Below are positions 3,182 through 24,926 of a stretch of DNA of 35,552 bases, piece by piece. Origin of the DNA: a virus. Lineage: Duplodnaviria; Heunggongvirae; Uroviricota; Caudoviricetes. The notes under the pieces are model-generated. The model did no database searches and had not been told where the DNA came from. It was given only the letters and a program-made list of their open reading frames with translations. Positions within the stretch are counted from its first letter, which is position 1. Each line of letters begins with the position of its first letter. A program made the translations under genes and the position numbers. The DNA is taken from IMG/VR virus record IMGVR_UViG_2645727510_000007, one strand, 5' to 3'.

Positions 3182-3535
3182 TCAGCGGCGACGGTTAACG
3201 GCAGGCGGCACGCCACGCCCAAGCCAGAGATGACAGCTTCCGCCATCATCCGGCGAAATCCGGTCTATCCAGAAGTTTTCCTCACCGATGGTCAGCGTGT
3301 CGCCGCGCCGCAGCTGCCGCACATCATCAGTCCGGACAAACAGGGACGGGCTGGAGCCTTCAACGCGCACGCCCTGTCCGGCATAGCTGATATTTTCAGG
3401 GTCATCAAAAACACCACGTATCACAGCACCGGACTGCTCACCGGATGTCATGGTGGCTGACGTTCCCATGTACCCGCGTATCGTTTCATCGGCGCAGGCA
3501 ATGGCAGCATCGAACAGGTTATCGAAATCAGCCAC
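3182..3535 (-). CDS. FII: Head-tail connector protein FII
   Basis: 117-aa ORF (MADFDNLFDAAI...) equal in length to lambda gpFII. Confidence 0.9.
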   Translation of the reverse strand: MADFDNLFDAAIACADETIRGYMGTSATMTSGEQSGAVIRGVFDDPENISYAGQGVRVEGSSPSLFVRTDDVRQLRRGDTLTIGEENFWIDRISPDDGGSCHLWLGRGVPPAVNRRR

Positions 3536-3546
3536 AGCGCCTCCCG

Positions 3547-3927
3547 TTATTGCATTCTGGCCAGGCCGCGCTCTGTCATTTCAGCTGCCACACCGGCAGA
3601 GACACGAAACGCCGTTCCCGGCAGCACAAATGCCACAGCCTCATCCCGCGTGGCGTGAAGTGCATCAGTATGCAGCGTCACCAGTGCCACAACCGTGACC
3701 AGAGCAGCCGTATCCTGAATCACGGTATCCGGCTGCGCTGATACAACCTCATTTTCATGTCCGGTCAGCACATTTTCCGGGCTGACAGACGTGTCCTGAC
3801 CGGCAGCGTCATCCGTGTCATCAAGCTCCTCTTCCAGCTCTGCCACACGGAGCGCCAGTTCTTCTTTCGTCCCCGTCAGGCTGACATCACGGTTCAGTTG
3901 CTCACCCAGCGACCTGAAGACGGGCAA
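3547..3927 (-). CDS. FI: DNA packaging protein FI, N-terminally frame-disrupted (possible pseudogene or TTG start)
   Basis: 126-aa ORF resembles lambda gpFI from about residue 11 on. The SD-preceded ATG at 3946..3944 encodes MTKDELIARLQVAG then stops at 3904..3902; the long ORF is in the +1 frame starting at TTG 3927. Confidence 0.6.
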   Translation of the reverse strand: MPVFRSLGEQLNRDVSLTGTKEELALRVAELEEELDDTDDAAGQDTSVSPENVLTGHENEVVSAQPDTVIQDTAALVTVVALVTLHTDALHATRDEAVAFVLPGTAFRVSAGVAAEMTERGLARMQ

Positions 3928-3987: not shown

Positions 3988-5013
3988 TTACGCCAGTTGA
4001 ACGGACACGAACGCATCAGGATCAGCCAGCAGCATCAGCGGTGCTGACTGAATCATGGTGAACTCACGCGCCGGATCGCCGGTGGTCACCCAGTTTTTCG
4101 GGTAACGGGCAGAGGCGTTAATACCTTCGCGCTGTGCGTCCGCATCCTGAATACAGCCATAGGTACGCAGACCGCGTGCCTGAGTGTTCCCCAGCACCAT
4201 CGTGTTGTCCGGAAGGAAGTTCTTTTTGACGCCGTTTTCCACGTACTGTCCGGAATACACGACGATCGCCACATCGCCATACATACCCTTATAAGACACC
4301 GCTTCGCCCAGGTCTTTTACCGCTGTCTCCAGCTCGGAATGAGAGCCGCGACGGGTATCCAGCTTATCCCTGACGGCTTTGAAGGAACGGAACAGCGCCC
4401 AGCCTTTCGGATCAAACACGATGATATTCACCACACCGCTGGCGTTCAGCGCGTAGGCTTCGATATCGTCGGTCGGGTCATACGTGGACTTGTCACGCTT
4501 GCTCCACTCCGTACCACCGGACTGCGTGATGTTGTTCGCCACACTGCGGCCCATATCCACCTCAACCGGATCAAAGGCTTCACCGGTCATGGTGTATTTG
4601 CCCTTAAGCACGGCAGAAACTGCCTGCATCTCTTCGACCTGAGCAATGGCCAGCTCTTCGTCACGCATGTTCTGCAGGATGATGCGACGGCGGCGGTAAG
4701 CCGGGTCCGCCAGATTCTGCGGATCTTCATCCGGCAGGCGACGCAGGGTCATCTGCGGATTCACCTCATGCTTCGGCTTGACATATCCCGGCGTAAATTC
4801 AGAGGTGGAGCCGCCACGGGAACGGATAACCTCACCGGAAACAATCGGCGAAACGTACAGCGCCATGTTTACCAGTCCCGGAATTTGTGAGAGATAGACT
4901 TTCTCCGTGGTGAAGGGATAGCTCTCACGGAAAAAGAGACGCAGAAACAGCGGATCAAACTTAAATTTCTGCTCATTTGCCGCCAGCAGCTGGGCGGTTG
5001 TGTACATCGACAT
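3988..5013 (-). CDS. E: Major capsid protein E
   Basis: ORF 3988..5040; internal Met at 5013 gives MSMYTTAQLLAANEQKF..., 341 aa, matching lambda gpE. Confidence 0.9.
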   Translation of the reverse strand: MSMYTTAQLLAANEQKFKFDPLFLRLFFRESYPFTTEKVYLSQIPGLVNMALYVSPIVSGEVIRSRGGSTSEFTPGYVKPKHEVNPQMTLRRLPDEDPQNLADPAYRRRRIILQNMRDEELAIAQVEEMQAVSAVLKGKYTMTGEAFDPVEVDMGRSVANNITQSGGTEWSKRDKSTYDPTDDIEAYALNASGVVNIIVFDPKGWALFRSFKAVRDKLDTRRGSHSELETAVKDLGEAVSYKGMYGDVAIVVYSGQYVENGVKKNFLPDNTMVLGNTQARGLRTYGCIQDADAQREGINASARYPKNWVTTGDPAREFTMIQSAPLMLLADPDAFVSVQLA

Positions 5014-5410: not shown

Positions 5411-6710
5411 TTACACTGGTGTGTTCAGCAAATCGTTAACGGCATCAGATGCCGGGTTACCTGCAGCCAGCGGTGCCGGGGCACCCTGCATCAGACGATC
5501 CAGCGCAGTGTCACTGCGCGCCTGTGCACTCTGTGGTGCTGCGGCCAGAATGCGGCGGGCCGTTTCCACGGTCATACCGGGGGTTTCTGCCAGCACGCGT
5601 GCCTGTTCTTCGCGTCCGTGAGCCTCCTCACAGTTGAGGATCCCCATAATGCGGCTGTTTTCTGCCGCAACCGCTGCGGTGATCTGCGCGTTCACGTCCG
5701 GCTGCGCCGCGCTGGCGTTTTCGCCCTCCGTCGCTGGCACCACGTCAGTAACGTCAGCCTGCGAAGCAGTGGCTGAAACAGTTGTTGATTGAGTCTCTTT
5801 GGTCATTCGCCCTCCTGAGAGACGGGATTTACGTGCATCCAGTGCATCACGCATGACGGTGATCGCATCGGTGCTGTTAACAAGTTCATCAGCCAGTCCG
5901 GCATCAATGGCCTCCTGACCGCTGTACACTGCAGCCTCGGTATCCAGCACAGCCTGCACGGACAGGCCGGTATATGCCGACACCTTCTGCGCAAACATCC
6001 GGCGGGTTGCATCCATCCGGGACTGCAGTGTCTCCCGGACATCACCCGGAAGATGGCTGTAGGGGTTGCCATCCACCTTATGGCTGCCGCTGTAAATCAG
6101 CGTGATTTCCACACCCTGTTTCTCCAGCGCAGCACCGTAATTACTGTGAGCCATCATGACGCCGATGGAGCCTGTCCGGGCGGTCTGCGTGACCAGACGC
6201 CGGGAGGCGGCACTGGCAAGCAACTGACCTGCACTGCAGTTCATGTCGTTGGCAAGCGCCCATACCGGTTTTATGTCACGCACACGGGCGATGATGTCAG
6301 CGCAGTCAAATGCCCCCGCCACCATCCCGCCGGGCGTGTCCATATCGAGCAGAATGCCGTCCACCATCGGATCGCTGGCAGCCTGTTGCAGACGGGCGAT
6401 AATGCCGTTGTAACCGGTCATCCCCGAGTACGGCTGCAGCGCCCGCGTCCGGCTGACCAGCGTGCCGGACACCGGCAGCACGGCGATGCCGTTCATGACC
6501 TGATAACTGCGGGCCTGTCGTGGTCCGTCATCATCAACGGATAACGCCAGCGCCGCGAGTGCCTCCCCGGCAGTCAGGCTGTCGCCGGACACCGCATCCG
6601 TCAGGCGGCTGATCCCAAGCGGGCCTGCAAGCGCACAAAAGAAAACCCGCGCATAGGCGGGTTCAAGCATCAGCGGCTCATTAAAAGCCATACTGGCAAT
6701 ATGCGGGAGA

Positions 6711-6730
<20 letters not shown>
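5411..6730 (-). CDS. C: Capsid maturation protease C (in-frame scaffold Nu3 embedded in the C-terminal part)
   Basis: ORF 5411..6865 overlaps the portal gene; GTG at 6730 gives VTAELRNLPHIASMAF..., 439 aa, as lambda gpC (ClpP/S49-like). Start codon is inferred. Confidence 0.8.
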
Positions 6731-10411
<3,681 letters not shown>

Positions 10412-19609: not shown

Positions 19610-20307
19610 ACACTTGCTCCTTTCAGTCCGAACTTAGCTTTGATTTCTGCGATCTTCGCCAAAGCCTGTGCACGATTTAGAGGTCTACCGCCCATGACAG
19701 GAAGTTGTTTTACTGGTTCAGGTATCGCCTCACCACGGTTAATTCGCGCGGTCATACAGGTCAGCTCATCGGCAGCCTTACGCCGTAATTCCGCGTCAGT
19801 CAGCGCATTGGCCCGCATGTTCTGGTACAGGTTGGTAACCAGCCAGTAGTGCGCGTTTGATTTCCACGGATAAGACTCTGCATCCGGATACAGTCCACGC
19901 TTCCGGCAATACTCGTAAACCATATCAACCAGCTCGCTGGCGTTTGGCAGTCCGGCAATAACGGATGCTTCTTCACGGCACCAGGCAACAAACTGCCCGG
20001 GTGATGGCAGGAATGGTCGATTCTGCCGACGGGCTACGCGCATTCCAGCGTTAACCTGTTCCATCGTGGTGATCCCATTTTCCCGAAAAGCCAGAACCCA
20101 CTGGCGGCGGATTTCGTTCAGTTCATTCTGGTCACGGTTAGCCAGGCTCGCCGGGAAAGTTGCCAGTAACTGGCTGAACACACCGTTGATGATCTGCGCT
20201 ACCTGCTGTACCTGTGGCTTTTCGTCGTACTGTTCCGGCATGTTGTTGGCGATCCGACGCATCTGCTCACGGTCAAAGTTAACCATCTGTGCGGCGATGT
20301 TTTTCAT
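19606..20307 (-). CDS. P: Replication protein P (DnaB helicase loader)
   Basis: 233-aa ORF essentially identical in length and sequence to lambda P. Confidence 0.95.
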   Translation of the reverse strand: MKNIAAQMVNFDREQMRRIANNMPEQYDEKPQVQQVAQIINGVFSQLLATFPASLANRDQNELNEIRRQWVLAFRENGITTMEQVNAGMRVARRQNRPFLPSPGQFVAWCREEASVIAGLPNASELVDMVYEYCRKRGLYPDAESYPWKSNAHYWLVTNLYQNMRANALTDAELRRKAADELTCMTARINRGEAIPEPVKQLPVMGGRPLNRAQALAKIAEIKAKFGLKGASV

Positions 20308-21233
20308 AAATCCACCCCGTAAATCCAGTCAGTGTTTGTCAGGTCGAGTTTTGGTTTGCTGGCTATCATGCCTGCCTGTTGCTTGTTACGGTTGATTTCG
20401 AGCTGGGTCCACTTGTCGCGGAGTTTGGCCGGACTCAGCACGTTACCGGACCAGAAGTTGTCCTGGCATGCCCAGCGGAACAGTACACACATGTCGCGGT
20501 GGTTACGTCCGTCACGTTCACGCATCAGGCGGATATCGTTAGCCCACCCTGCAAAATTCGGTTTTCTGGCTGATGGCGCAATGGTCTTCACCATGTCAAA
20601 CATCCACTCTGCGGCGGTCAGGTCTTCTGCTGTCCCCCACTTGCTGCCGCTCTGAATTGCAGCATCCGGTTTCACCACAGGAAGATCGTTTTCTGGCTGG
20701 TCAGAGGATTCGACAGAATTCTCGGACGAAAAAGGTTTTATATTGTCTTTTGTTAGTTTGTCTTTTGTATTTACCTGATTCGGGTAAACGTCTTTACCTG
20801 ATTTGGGTAAAATTTTCTTACCTGATTCAGGTAAATTTACCTCTTTCAGGTAAACTTTATTTTTCTTACCTGATTCGGGTAATGTTAACCATTCACTGAT
20901 CACATTATTAATGCCGGTATTCCGCCCGCTCTGAATAAAAATCCCACGCTTTACCAGAACACTTTTTGCAGCAGAACACTTGTGCGGCAATATCCCGGTC
21001 AACTCGGAAAGTTGCTCGTTGCTCACCCAATCCAGTTTTTTATTAAAGCCATATGTTTTACGCATGACAGCCAGGAAGACCAGAAGCTGGTGCTGTGTTA
21101 ATCCGGCCAGCATTACAGCTTCCAGCAACTCATTTGCAATGCGCGTATAACCATCATCGAGATCTGCCACGCGCGGCTCCTTTTGTGCCACATCCGGCAC
21201 TGGAAAATTGAATATCTCAGCAGTGTTTGCCAT
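20304..21233 (-). CDS. O: Replication initiator O
   Basis: ORF 20304..21314; SD-preceded ATG at 21233 gives MANTAEIFNFPVPDVAQKEPRVADLDDGY..., lambda O-like; iteron-encoded repeats (LPESGKK) inside; C-terminus ...NTDWIYGVDL. Confidence 0.9.
   Translation of the reverse strand: MANTAEIFNFPVPDVAQKEPRVADLDDGYTRIANELLEAVMLAGLTQHQLLVFLAVMRKTYGFNKKLDWVSNEQLSELTGILPHKCSAAKSVLVKRGIFIQSGRNTGINNVISEWLTLPESGKKNKVYLKEVNLPESGKKILPKSGKDVYPNQVNTKDKLTKDNIKPFSSENSVESSDQPENDLPVVKPDAAIQSGSKWGTAEDLTAAEWMFDMVKTIAPSARKPNFAGWANDIRLMRERDGRNHRDMCVLFRWACQDNFWSGNVLSPAKLRDKWTQLEINRNKQQAGMIASKPKLDLTNTDWIYGVDL
20771..20883. repeat. ori: Origin of replication iterons inside O (five copies of about 18-bp ttacctgattcgggtaaa-like inverted-repeat units)
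   Basis: Five direct repeats at about 23-bp spacing, each itself palindromic (TTACC...GGTAA), as in lambda ori. Confidence 0.8.
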
Positions 21234-21310
21234 AATTCCTCCCGCAATGAGTGTTGCACCTGAAAGTCGGTTCTGTTCGCGCAGACCGGCTTTCGCCATT
21301 TCTGAACCTG

Positions 21311-21850
21311 TCATATTGCCCCCAGCATGGTGGTGACCATCGCCATCAGTGGACCAGCCAGATCCGGGTCCACACGAAACATCGACACAATGCCTTCACT
21401 CATCTCCTTCAGTTTCTGGTGGCGTGGTGCGTTGAGAATGACAGCCTGTTTTGCCTCACTGAGTTCCTTTTCCATTTCAGCCAGCCGAGCCATGTAGCTA
21501 TCCTGCTCAACCAGGTGGCCGCGATATTCCAGCGGTAGTACCGCCAGAATTGCCGGGGTCAGTTCACGCACGTTATTTCGGTATTTTTCAGAATCGAATT
21601 TGTTATCGAGGAAGCGGAACAGCTTCTGGCGTGCACGGCTGACATCATCAGGGAAATCGATGGTGCCGCCGCCCTGCTCCCGATACTCATTCACAATGAG
21701 TGTGGCAACGACATCCTGATTATCTTCAGCCGACCAGGCGCGGACGGCATCACGGATTTTTTCGTGGCCTGGCACCTGTTTTGTTTGAGAACGATTTATC
21801 ACCGCAGTCGGGCTAAATCCGCTAGTCTGTTGGTATGTAAGTTGTTGCAT
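21311..21850 (-). CDS. cII-position regulatory protein, YdaT-like (putative)
   Basis: 179-aa ORF with strong SD (aaggag) between cro-like and O; contains NEYREQGGG motif recalled from YdaT-family proteins. Family assignment is by memory only. Confidence 0.45.
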   Translation of the reverse strand: MQQLTYQQTSGFSPTAVINRSQTKQVPGHEKIRDAVRAWSAEDNQDVVATLIVNEYREQGGGTIDFPDDVSRARQKLFRFLDNKFDSEKYRNNVRELTPAILAVLPLEYRGHLVEQDSYMARLAEMEKELSEAKQAVILNAPRHQKLKEMSEGIVSMFRVDPDLAGPLMAMVTTMLGAI

Positions 21851-21919
21851 AATTGACTCCTTTAGTTTGAATTGACTGCTAAGTTGATTGCTTATTGTTA
21901 AAGAGCGTGAAATGGAAAT

Positions 21920-22150
21920 TTAAGCTGCGTTCTTTTCGGTATGTGGAAACAACTTCGGAAGATCCGGGCGAATCTGGTATGCCTTCACTATTCCACCAGT
22001 AGCCGTAACAATGCTGCCGACATGTTCAGGGGATACCTTTGCTTTGTTGTGAAGCCACTTATAGACGGCCTGCTGTGAAACTTCGCAGGCAGCGCCCAGT
22101 TTCTTTTGTGAACCAACGATATTGATCGCTGTTTTGATAGCTGGGTTCAT
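21920..22150 (-). CDS. cro: Cro-like HTH repressor (YdaS/DUF1019-type)
   Basis: 76-aa ORF divergent from cI across an operator region; HTH-like segment (QKKLGAACEVSQQAVYKWL). Confidence 0.75.
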   Translation of the reverse strand: MNPAIKTAINIVGSQKKLGAACEVSQQAVYKWLHNKAKVSPEHVGSIVTATGGIVKAYQIRPDLPKLFPHTEKNAA

Positions 22151-22254
22151 AACAACCTCCGTGGTTAATTTGAATCAAGATTAAAACTATGGTTGTTTTT
22201 AGCCAACAACCATTTTCGTTTGATGAAATAAAACCTTGGTTGTACATTTGGACT
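22151..22254. promoter_or_regulatory. Divergent immunity promoters and right operator (pR/pRM, OR)
   Basis: Intergenic region between cro-like and cI with a 9-bp perfect inverted repeat atggttgtt/aacaaccat (22189..22213) and two more AACAACC-like half-sites (22205-22225, 22236-22250). Confidence 0.65.
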
Positions 22255-22944
22255 ATGAAAACAACACTCTCAGAAAGACTTAAAGAAGCCAGATTAGCGC
22301 GAGGCCTTACACAAAAGGCGCTTGGGGATTTGGTCGGGGTTAGCCAAGCTGCTATTCAGAAAATCGAAACAGGGAAAGCTAACCAAACAACTAAAATCGT
22401 GGAGATCGCGAACGCTTTGGGTGTGCGCGCAGAATGGTTATCTTCTGGCGTTGGAAATATGTCAGACAGTACAGTGCAACCAATACAATCAACTGTCAGC
22501 CATTCCAAATACTTTAAGATTGACGTTCTTGATATAGAAGTGAGTGCCGGGCCGGGAGTCATCAACCGTGAGTTTGTAGAAGTTCTACGCTCGGTTGAGT
22601 ACTCGTTTGACGATGCTCGTCACATGTTCGATGGTAGGAAGGCAGAAAATATCCGCATCATTAACGTGCGTGGTGACAGCATGTCAGGAACGATCGAACC
22701 AGGTGATCTGCTGTTCGTTGATATCACGGTTAAATCTTTCGACGGTGATGGCATCTATGCGTTTCTGTACGACGACACCGCCCATGTAAAGCGCCTGCAA
22801 ATGATGAAGGATAAGCTGCTGGTTATCTCTGATAACAAGAGCTACTCACCGTGGGACCCGATCGAGAAAGACGAGATGAACCGGGTGTTCATCTTCGGTA
22901 AGGTTATTGGGAGCATGCCCCAGACGTACAGGAAACATGGATAA
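22255..22944 (+). CDS. cI: CI-type repressor (HTH_XRE N-terminal domain, LexA-like S24 self-cleaving C-terminal domain)
   Basis: From the Met at 22255: MKTTLSERLKEARLARGLTQKALGDLVGVSQAAIQKIETGK... (HTH); C-terminal domain has the catalytic Ser context (VRGDSMSGTIEPGDLLFVD) and Lys (HVKRL). Confidence 0.9.
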   Translation: MKTTLSERLKEARLARGLTQKALGDLVGVSQAAIQKIETGKANQTTKIVEIANALGVRAEWLSSGVGNMSDSTVQPIQSTVSHSKYFKIDVLDIEVSAGPGVINREFVEVLRSVEYSFDDARHMFDGRKAENIRIINVRGDSMSGTIEPGDLLFVDITVKSFDGDGIYAFLYDDTAHVKRLQMMKDKLLVISDNKSYSPWDPIEKDEMNRVFIFGKVIGSMPQTYRKHG

Positions 22945-23010
22945 TCAGTACTGTGCTGATGAGTCGTTTAGGGGATAGTAAATTTAATTAGAATTAGACG
23001 AGAGCGATTT

Positions 23011-23874
23011 ATGGATTGTGACGCTTTACAGGATATAAAAATCTCTCTTAGGTATGACGGAAAAGATGCTTTAAATCATGAAATAGATTTGAACTGCCTA
23101 GGAGAATCCCTAAAGGGTTTTTCTAAAGTTCTCTCAACAGCAGCTTCTTTCTCTGTTACACAAAAATATAGTAAATACATTAATTATCAGGAAGTTAAGG
23201 TTTACGCACGCGAAGCAAAAGCTAACTGCTTTACTCTTGAAGCAGTTCTTAACTTCGCCACTCAGAACCAGTTGTTCTCGGGGATCGCCGCAACTATACT
23301 TGGCGCAATACTACAATATATTTTTGCGAGAAATTCTAACAAGAAAGATGAAATGAAAGCTTTGCAGCAGTCACTTGAAAAGGCCATAGAGGCACTAGGA
23401 AACAAGGATGCTGGAACCATTGATAAGTTGATCTCTTTGATTGACCGAATGGCTGTAGAGCTTCGCCCCTCTGTAAGGCAGGCAGTATCACCTATTGGTA
23501 ATACTTGCGATCAGATAAGTGTTGCAACAAATGTTGACGGCTGCCTTCTAAAAGTTAACGAGAGAGATAAAGCTGAAATTGATAGGCTTGATGATGATGA
23601 AGTTCTCGGTCTTCGTGAGTATCGTGCTTTTCTTACAGAATTTGATGCACAAAATATGACAGCTAAAATAATTTTAGATGGTGATGACTCAAAAAAGAGA
23701 ATCACTGCTGAAATTAGCGATCCAGCTGCAGGAAAGAAGAATAACCCGTATATTAGAGCTCTTAGTGCATATATATCAACCAAAGGTGATCCATCTGCAG
23801 TATTCACTATAACCGCAAAGGCTACTGTTAAAAAAGGCCAGATAAACAGGTTATTTATTGTAGATGCGAAATGA
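23011..23874 (+). CDS. Uncharacterised protein at the rexAB position, co-transcribed with cI; candidate exclusion or abortive-infection factor
   Basis: 287-aa ORF 66 nt after cI with no terminator between, followed by a strong terminator; AT-rich versus flanking cI; one hydrophobic segment ([19 protein letters not shown]); no resemblance to RexA/RexB that I can recognise. Confidence 0.75.
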
Positions 23875-23878
23875 TTTC

Positions 23879-23905
23879 CCCGGCCGTCGTGCCGGGTTTT
23901 CTTTT
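23879..23905 (+). terminator. Rho-independent terminator ending the cI operon
   Basis: cccggc-cgtcgt-gccggg hairpin followed by ttttcttttg. Confidence 0.8.
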
Positions 23906-23999
23906 GCCTCCCCTCATCACACACCGTTCAAAAAACCACCACAACCCCGCTTCGGTTATCGCTATGCGATGCAAGTCACAAAATAAATCCATCCTAAAT

Positions 24000-24075
24000 A
24001 CAACCAGTTATATCTAAAACAACCAACAAAACAACTTTTGTTGTTGACGATAAAACAACTATAGTTTTAAATGAA
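24000..24075 (+). promoter_or_regulatory. Left operator and pL region (OL/pL)
   Basis: Repeated AACAAC[C/T]AT-type half-sites (aacaaccaacaaaacaac, ttttgttgttgac, aaaacaactatagtttt) matching the OR half-sites; TTGACG -35-like hexamer oriented toward the early-left genes. Confidence 0.6.
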
Positions 24076-24347
24076 TTCATCGCAACAACACAACGATACG
24101 GCAATCACCTGATTCACCGTTGCGATGACCGCTTAGATCCGCAGCTTGAATTTCAGCAGGCTCCGGGGAGTGCGAGGGGTGAAGCGGACGCGTGAACGTC
24201 GGTGTGACCAGCTGAAATCAACTCAACACTTCATACCTCAGTCGCTTCAACGAGGCGACTTAGTTATGACAACCGGCGGCCATCCACCGCCAGATACTGC
24301 GCAACCCCTTATTTGTTCAGCAGCCCAGCTTACGGGCAGGAGTTTTT

Positions 24348-24554
24348 ATGGTTCATCAACATTACGGAACGCAGACCGTTAATCGAGGTGCGGTCATGCC
24401 AGGAATGCTGGTCAAACACAAAGATGGTACCTGGACTGCATCAGCTAATTTACGCGGACGGCTTTATCTGCATCGCGGCATCGAGCGCACTTATACCCGT
24501 GATTTGCTCGTGGAAGTTTTTCTCGACGGACGCGGCAACGGTCTGAATCACTAA
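24348..24554 (+). CDS. Hypothetical 68-aa protein at the kil position upstream of gam
   Basis: SD (caggag) 7 nt upstream of ATG; no recognisable family from sequence. Confidence 0.5.
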   Translation: MVHQHYGTQTVNRGAVMPGMLVKHKDGTWTASANLRGRLYLHRGIERTYTRDLLVEVFLDGRGNGLNH

Positions 24555-24629
24555 TCCCCTTTCCTGTTTTCCGAATCAGCCTGGCATTCCGCGGGCGATT
24601 TTTTCACAGCCATTTTCAGGAGTTCAGCC

Positions 24630-24926
24630 ATGAACGCTTATTACATTCAGGATCGTCTTGAGGCTCAGAGCTGGGCGCGTCACTACCAGCAGATCGCCCG
24701 TGAAGAGAAAGAGGCAGAACTGGCAGACGACATGGAAAAAGGCCTGCCCCAGCACCTGTTTGAATCGCTATGCATCGATCATTTGCAACGCCACGGGGCC
24801 AGCAAAAAAGCCATTACCCGTGCGTTTGATGACGATGTTGAGTTTCAGGAGCGCATGGCAGAACACATCCGGTACATGGTTGAAACCATTGCTCACCACC
24901 AGGTTGATATTGATTCAGAGGTATAA
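24630..24926 (+). CDS. gam: Gam (RecBCD inhibitor), short GamS form only
   Basis: 98-aa [44 protein letters not shown]... near-identical to the C-terminal 98 aa of lambda Gam. Upstream in-frame sequence still encodes ...FRSSA but has no start codon. Confidence 0.9.

Follow-up and report, generated by a model that had tools for sequence, protein, structure and literature searches.

In phage lambda, the slot downstream of cI and upstream of oL/pL is occupied by rexA and rexB, which are expressed in lysogens. RexA, a protein of 279 aa, is a DNA-binding sensor and RexB is a four-TM channel, a two-gene arrangement. Other exclusion genes expressed from prophages and located in the early-left or immunity region are sieB of P22 and lambdoid phages and the genes for the HK97-type Stk kinases. 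In Salmonella phage BTP1 and its relatives, a single protein of about 300 aa, BstA, is encoded directly downstream of the prophage repressor by a gene that has a terminator of its own. BstA serves in abortive-infection defence, and its gene lies in the cI-N interval, a known mosaic hotspot (bioRxiv 10.1101/2020.07.13.199331). Exclusion has also been described for phi80, lysogens of which resist T4 and lower the yield of P1 tenfold; the paper names no responsible gene, and reports an unusually high inducibility of phi80 by DNA damage (PMC2885432). Tai is among the proteins encoded by phi80 (PMC11364771).

Here we describe a gene of 287 codons which occupies the corresponding position in a virus of the class Caudoviricetes (IMG/VR record IMGVR_UViG_2645727510_000007). 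The whole stretch of 35,552 nucleotides that was analysed is referred to below as the window.

Organization of the immunity region

The immunity region of the window is of the lambdoid type and has the inverted orientation. A cro-like gene of 76 aa (21920..22150, minus strand), an identical copy of which is a transcriptional regulator in RefSeq, is divergent from cI (22256..22944, plus strand), which encodes a repressor with HTH_3 and Peptidase_S24 domains according to Pfam and the annotation. Between cro and cI, an exact pattern match located an operator-like palindrome, AAAAC-N7-GTTTT (22183..22199), the putative oR. The identical RefSeq cI protein, WP_000858975.1, starts with MKTT at the position corresponding to 22256. 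The mechanical start of the open reading frame is at 22189, inside an inverted repeat with 9-bp arms (22189-22213) overlapping the palindrome at 22183-22199, and the 22 codons upstream of the RefSeq start are probably operator/promoter DNA rather than coding sequence.

The 287-aa gene is listed as an open reading frame with an ATG start at 23011..23874 on the plus strand. Because the cI frame ends at 22944, the gap between the two genes is 66 nt. This leader (22945..23010, plus strand) was characterized from its sequence, by a terminator scan and by folding, and has, about 9 nt upstream of the ATG, a GAGAG motif resembling a Shine-Dalgarno sequence. A consensus scan found no terminator-like sites in 22945-23010, and no strong internal promoter was reported by the scan of the leader; a weak promoter candidate, TTTAGG-16-TAGAAT, was noticed there by eye only. 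Four nucleotides past the reading frame, the terminator scan detected a hairpin at 23879-23896 with a six-pair, all-G:C stem followed by TTTTCTTTTG. Together they form the intrinsic terminator of the immunity operon (23879..23906, plus strand; scan, BLAST and fold). The initial annotation, made from the sequence before any database search, had placed the gene in the cI operon at the rexAB position, 66 nt past cI with no terminator between, and had described it as AT-rich relative to cI and as ending at a strong terminator. The position, the gap and the composition were all as described, the GC content being 0.38-0.41 for the gene, 0.45-0.48 for cI and about 0.52 for the flanks. The terminator was also present, with a folding energy of -12.1 kcal/mol, which makes it a normal intrinsic terminator, good and not exceptionally strong. 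Since the gene is situated between the cI stop codon and the terminator shared by the operon, it is most likely transcribed together with cI in lysogens.

Past the 287-aa gene, the order is putative oL/pL, then kil, gam, bet and exo. A pattern search gave putative oL operators at 24028-24044 and 24052-24068 (plus strand), and these sites overlap a putative pL composed of TTGACG (24044-24049) and TTAAAT (24067-24072) separated by 17 nt on the plus strand; both assignments follow the analogy with the annotated oL/pL of phi80. No N-like or nun-like reading frame was found between the putative pL and kil (24348-24554), and RefSeq annotates none. The 261-nt leader at 24085-24345 folds somewhat better than shuffled sequences (-87.4 kcal/mol, z -2.4), and a 28-nt stretch at 24262-24289 is identical to phi80 DNA just downstream of N/tL1A. 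This leader might contain an N-independent (put-like) antitermination element. A search of Rfam with 21800-24700 returned a sub-threshold miRNA match only.

On the other side of the region, the GC content dips to 0.39-0.42 at 20600-21050, inside a replication gene of 336 aa (20304-21314, minus strand), and the peptide encoded there repeats LPESGKK / LPKSGK. These repeats look like lambda-O-type iterons, with a replication origin embedded in the initiator gene.

Comparison with phi80 gene 40A and with described exclusion systems

In a tblastn search of phage genomes, 99% of the query aligned with phi80 gene 40A, the identity being 62%, and by sequence and position the 287-aa gene is the counterpart of this gene. 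The phage collection contained only five records with the gene, four of which were phi80 entries. Gene 40A is annotated as PHI80_46 (AFV29182.1) and is split as 40A/40B in the older X13065 entry. Both phages have the order cI, gene, oL/pL and leftward early genes, and the proteins are of almost the same length (288 aa in phi80 and 287 aa here). They differ in the cI allele and the immunity, in the gap between cI and the gene (136 nt in phi80 and 66 nt here), and in the N gene, which follows pL in phi80 and has no equivalent in the window. The GenBank label of an acetate kinase superfamily domain on phi80 40A found no support in Pfam, NCBIfam or PDB-profile searches. Gene 40A is a candidate for the T4 effect of phi80 lysogens, for which another phi80 gene could instead be responsible.

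The locus shares with lambda the slot between cI and oL/pL. However, the protein is neither a RexA nor a RexB, the hhalign probabilities being 0.2% and 0.1%, respectively. Membership in SieB was rejected as well, as no SieB family appeared among the Pfam or PHROG matches with E values up to 1, and the absence of resemblance to RexA, RexB and SieB suspected in the initial annotation was thus supported. While SieB and the Stk kinases are likewise prophage-expressed exclusion proteins of this part of the genome, the 287-aa protein has neither a SieB nor a kinase domain; a PD-T4-6/Stk2-like kinase fills this very slot in other E. coli strains. The gene resembles bstA in encoding a single protein of similar size directly downstream of the repressor, in a putatively shared transcription unit with a terminator behind it, but no KilA-N or BstA-like Pfam match was obtained and the predicted fold is of the OB plus helical type, so it does not belong to BstA.

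The remaining candidate was PDC-S42, a PADLOC candidate family of similar size (302-aa model), to which the N-terminal 115 or so residues are weakly similar. The match of the 287-aa protein has an E value of 1.5e-4 and 19.3 bits and covers only model positions 4-113 of 302. About half of the relatives aligned (52 of 106) also match PDC-S42 weakly, with a best E value of 3e-8. The score of 19.3 bits is far too low for membership and the C-terminal part is unmatched, which leaves PDC-S42 as a distant relative at best. To our knowledge, the PDC families, PDC-S42 included, are unvalidated candidates. The gene is a putative exclusion-type cargo of a repressor operon, with a family and fold unrelated to those of Rex, SieB, BstA and the kinases.

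Protein family and selection

Although the initial annotation called the gene unrecognised and its product undescribed, both are catalogued. The protein matched Pfam DUF7946 over aa 11-191 (23041..23583, plus strand; E 3.8e-55, 187.2 bits) and DUF7947 over aa 201-287 (23611..23871, plus strand; E 1.4e-18, 67.1 bits), the gathering cut-off being 27 in both cases, and the extent of the first domain agreed with the predicted secondary structure and with the conservation. PHROG 5147, which is listed with function unknown, was matched end to end (E 1.5e-178). By these profile matches the protein is a member of a two-domain DUF7946 + DUF7947 family (PHROG 5147). Full-text literature searches found no published function for this family, for PDC-S42 or for phi80 40A.

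A profile search of 1.84 billion representative proteins gave 502 clusters at E <=0.001 and 100 at E <=1e-30, so that the family amounts to about 500 clusters at 50% identity. The full-length clusters are nearly all 270-300 aa long, and a Pfam scan showed the same two-domain architecture in nine of ten distant relatives of variant length. Members of the family are found mostly in prophages and on mobile islands. In comparisons of the 287-aa gene with five homologues, pN was 0.09-0.30 and pS was saturated at 0.76-0.88; pN/pS was used instead of dN/dS because of this saturation (pS >=0.75). The low pN against a saturated pS points to purifying selection on the 287-aa gene and, together with the roughly 500 clusters, indicates that the gene is real.

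Of 5426 complete E. coli genomes, 77 have a near-identical copy, which is annotated as hypothetical or as DUF7946 domain-containing protein. In E. coli VG1046-3E9 (NZ_CP128594.1, 3681378-3683205), an IS1A element splits a cI-to-terminator region that is otherwise 100% identical, the match spanning 1828 bp as against the 1051 bp of the query; the insertion may have inactivated the DUF7946 gene or left it intact. E. coli UID2309220013 (NZ_CM142663.1, 888182-905232) has the same immunity region in a short prophage remnant next to icd, with integrase and excisionase at one end. An inverse-autotransporter gene there abuts the replication genes, and the late genes thus appear to be missing.

An exchangeable cassette between cI and the operon terminator

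The same cI, often as an identical protein, was found in about 1520 E. coli genomes, and the DUF7946 gene in 77. To define the limits of the insertion, window positions 22800-24600 were compared by BLAST with six other versions of the slot, including an empty one. Homology stopped at 22943-22946, that is, at the cI stop codon (at 22972 in one variant), and resumed in all six variants at 23879, where the terminator stem begins. These shared breakpoints delimit a cargo of approximately 22945-23878 (plus strand) consisting of the leader, the reading frame and 4 nt, and assign the terminator to the backbone common to all cargo variants.

The alternative states of the slot were collected from a spread sample of 60 genomes and from annotated regions. 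The empty slot was the commonest single state in the 60-genome sample, and the cI-to-kil span was 1491 bp in the empty slot compared with 2299 bp here. Other states carried DUF6932 with a 310-aa protein, a 353-aa protein with an ASCH protein, a Ser/Thr kinase with a PP2C phosphatase, a Panacea-domain protein with a small partner, or two small hypothetical proteins (O26:H11); further states occur, and one variant has a BamE-like gene. In a PADLOC scan, the alternative cargo matched PDC-M63A/B (E 7e-43 and 4e-42), PDC-M11A/B (E 3e-133 and 7e-52) and kinases of the PD-T4-6/Stk2/mad6 type (E 1e-34 to 3e-39). Defence and toxin-antitoxin types account for most of the alternative cargo that could be identified. 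A survey of what follows cI had been proposed with the initial annotation as a way of finding out whether the slot is a variable site for defence cargo, and with empty, PDC-M63, PDC-M11, kinase plus PP2C and Panacea states it proved to be one. The DUF7946 gene is also linked to a second E. coli immunity type, in which the N-terminal part of cI differs. We conclude that the 287-aa gene is a discrete, conserved and selected cargo gene of a lambdoid immunity operon.

The slot designated as empty is not entirely so. In E. coli S1-SRL-01-C, the cI stop codon is still separated from the shared terminator by about 121 nt (990-1110 of the locus). This DNA is not similar to the DUF7946 cassette and may be a remnant or a scar left by recombination.

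Genomic contexts of the family

Related loci were collected outside E. coli as well; a search with a 17-sequence alignment gave five. Of the 16 distinct contexts counted by us, 11 have the homologue directly behind a repressor gene that points in the same direction, the gap being 24-220 nt as a rule; these 11 range from Enterobacterales to Neisseriales. Homologues of 49-65% identity adjoin unrelated repressor alleles in phi80, Klebsiella, Morganella, Vitreoscilla, Neisseria, Erwinia and an Enterobacter MAG. In Klebsiella aerogenes and relatives, one identical protein occurs beside three cI alleles with differing replication modules, and in Morganella the homologue is found beside two cI alleles. 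The homologue in an Enterobacter MAG lies downstream of a CI-type HTH repressor without S24. The five contexts that are not repressor-adjacent are a Serratia island with Abi_2 and AlpA, a Helicobacter prophage, a Rahnella contig, a Burkholderiaceae contig and one metagenome contig. As far as gene order can tell, these contexts show the repressor operon to be the preferred home of the DUF7946/DUF7947 family.

Several of these loci have additional genes next to the homologue. In Vitreoscilla sp. C1, a SIR2_2-domain gene (6661-8274 of its locus) comes immediately after the repressor-linked homologue, and in Neisseria sp. a HigB/HigA pair (4019-4564 of its locus) has the same position; both are cases of defence or toxin-antitoxin genes grouped at this end of the immunity region. 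In Erwinia sp. CGal63, a Tlde1-domain gene (3188-3721 of its locus, E 1.4e-29), of the L,D-transpeptidase-like toxin type, is located between cI and the DUF7946 gene, which means that the slot can hold two stacked cargo genes.

Predicted structure and conserved residues

An earlier AlphaFold model built from 17 sequences was mediocre (pLDDT 74) and was replaced by an AlphaFold2 model from 106 aligned relatives, with a mean pLDDT of 91.7 and a pTM of 0.76. In this model the N-terminal part is composed of a strand (9-16), a helix (27-50) and two further strands (62-67 and 75-82), followed by a hydrophobic helix (87-108), helices 112-128, 134-150 and 152-158, and then a small hairpin and helix; the DUF7946 domain is accordingly a three-stranded sheet with a long helix and a helical bundle. 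Residues 197-286 form a barrel. The C-terminal DUF7947 domain is thus predicted to have an OB fold, its five-stranded barrel being superposable on known OB folds, with metal-binding SilF as the best structural match. A Foldseek search of viral models (BFVD) returned three uncharacterised distant relatives and, for the C-terminal domain, IF1 or cold-shock OB folds. No structural analogue of the whole protein was found, and the profile search against PDB sequences gave matches at chance level only, with prefoldin (E 0.025) at the top.

Conserved residues are Y15, G17, A20, H23, L30, S33 and G36 in the N-terminal part and P161, G163 and C166 in the middle, and the OB domain has most of the conserved polar residues (E210, D212, K219, R230, D237, P238, N245, Y247, K270 and D285). 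No recognisable catalytic motif was seen in the conservation of the family.

The single hydrophobic stretch remarked on in the initial annotation corresponds to residues 88-106 (23272..23328, plus strand), a Gly/Ala/Ser-rich helix followed by the basic sequence RNSNKK. Its 19-residue Kyte-Doolittle mean is 1.85, the usual threshold being 1.6, and values of >=1.6 were obtained for 58 of the 106 family members, the helix staying hydrophobic and rich in Gly, Ala and Ser. The apparent insertion free energy of 88-106 is about +1.6 kcal/mol (a hand estimate on the Hessa scale). Helix 87-108 lies in sequence blocks with mean pLDDT values of 75-97. Only one such segment is present, with no signal peptide and no clear transmembrane topology, and it is modelled inside the folded domain. 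The idea of a membrane protein is therefore ambiguous, as the helix is only marginally hydrophobic and, being placed within a folded domain, may simply be a buried core helix.

Possible functions of the 287-aa protein

The explanation that best covers all of these results, and to which we give about an even chance, is that of a cassette corresponding to phi80 40A, co-transcribed with cI and encoding an anti-phage factor in which one protein combines an OB sensor with a helical effector. The protein would be expressed from the prophage and would act as a superinfection-exclusion or abortive-infection factor. The OB domain may recognise a product of the infecting phage, either nucleic acid or protein, and the effector would be the helical N-terminal domain, the hydrophobic helix of which might insert into the inner membrane. 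This reading is suggested by the position of the gene, its nature as discrete cargo, the defence-type alternative cargo, its rarity (77 as against about 1520 genomes with the same cI) and the synteny with repressors. The SIR2_2, HigBA and Abi_2 neighbours, the weak kinship with PDC-S42, and the OB fold combined with a conserved helix point in the same direction, as do the T4 and P1 phenotypes of phi80 lysogens (PMC2885432) and the precedent of BstA (bioRxiv 10.1101/2020.07.13.199331). Against it are the weakness of the PDC-S42 match, the absence of a catalytic motif and of a whole-protein analogue among the matches, the marginal helix, and the five of 16 contexts without an adjacent repressor; the phi80 phenotype may also be due to another gene. 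Furthermore, OB folds also bind metals and sugars, and SilF is the top structural match.

A more specific proposal would make DUF7946/DUF7947 a widespread, undescribed family of single-protein abortive-infection systems, in which the OB sensor frees a latent helix that damages the inner membrane. The trigger would be a replication or recombination intermediate of the phage or a phage protein, and the protein would be a one-polypeptide functional analogue of RexA/RexB. On this view, both the T4 resistance and the P1 interference of phi80 lysogens, long without an assigned gene, would be accounted for. We regard this proposal as tentative, and doubt that it will hold in full.

Alternatively, the protein could modulate the lysogeny switch or induction by working with S24-type repressors, for example if the OB domain senses ssDNA or damage and tunes maintenance or induction. 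The tight same-strand linkage to repressors of many specificities in two bacterial orders would be accounted for in this way, OB folds commonly bind ssDNA, and there are reports of an effect of lambda RexA on the lysis-lysogeny switch. The unusual inducibility of phi80 by DNA damage (PMC2885432) would fit as well. However, the identical cI works without the gene in most genomes, the empty slot being common, the slot also takes unrelated cargo, one identical DUF7946 protein is combined with three cI alleles, and some members are far from any repressor. Empty slots, unrelated cargo and three cI alleles fit an autonomous cargo better than a co-adapted partner, and a role in the switch is in our estimation unlikely.

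A gene for lysogenic conversion or host fitness, such as an envelope or stress factor unrelated to phage defence, is an explanation of similarly low probability. Low GC content and putative expression in the lysogen are features of a moron, the helix is a possible membrane helix, metal-binding SilF is the best structural match of the OB domain, and one slot variant has the BamE-like gene. On the other hand, the identifiable alternative cargo is mostly of defence or toxin-antitoxin type, the protein has no signal peptide or clear transmembrane topology, and the family is largely limited to prophages and mobile islands.

It is less probable still that the gene is a selfish addiction or toxin-like element which stabilises the prophage or the cassette and affects other phages only secondarily. 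Toxin-antitoxin modules (Panacea, HigBA) do occur among the neighbouring or alternative cargo, a latent membrane-active helix could be toxic, and the IS1 insertion in one E. coli cI-to-terminator region could reflect a cost, but this is a single gene with no conserved partner antitoxin adjoining; purifying selection acts on it, and 77 E. coli genomes have an intact copy. Finally, a phage structural or housekeeping protein is very improbable: the match of aa 11-121 to NCBIfam NF053583 ('LAPAL motif-containing putative phage structural protein', E 4.7e-6) reaches 26 bits against a curated cut-off of 60, covers the N-terminal part only and concerns a family whose name is itself a guess, and the gene sits in an immunity operon, is dispensable, as the empty slot demonstrates, and is absent from nearly all sequenced phages.

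Significance

A defence gene at the site downstream of cI would not surprise specialists. In favour of this cassette as a subject are the breadth of the family, the clean architecture of the cassette and the availability of phi80 as a ready genetic system. With its exact boundaries at the cI stop codon and the shared terminator, the cassette marks out a compact site in the lambdoid prophages of E. coli where further defence genes can be sought. If the defence role of the 287-aa protein is confirmed, a new protein family and fold would be added to prophage-encoded immunity, with about 500 clusters at 50% identity in Enterobacterales, Neisseriales and beyond. A function would then be available for a gene of a classical phage, phi80 40A, the sequence of which dates from 1988, and this could explain the T4 resistance of phi80 lysogens, which are a frequent laboratory contaminant.
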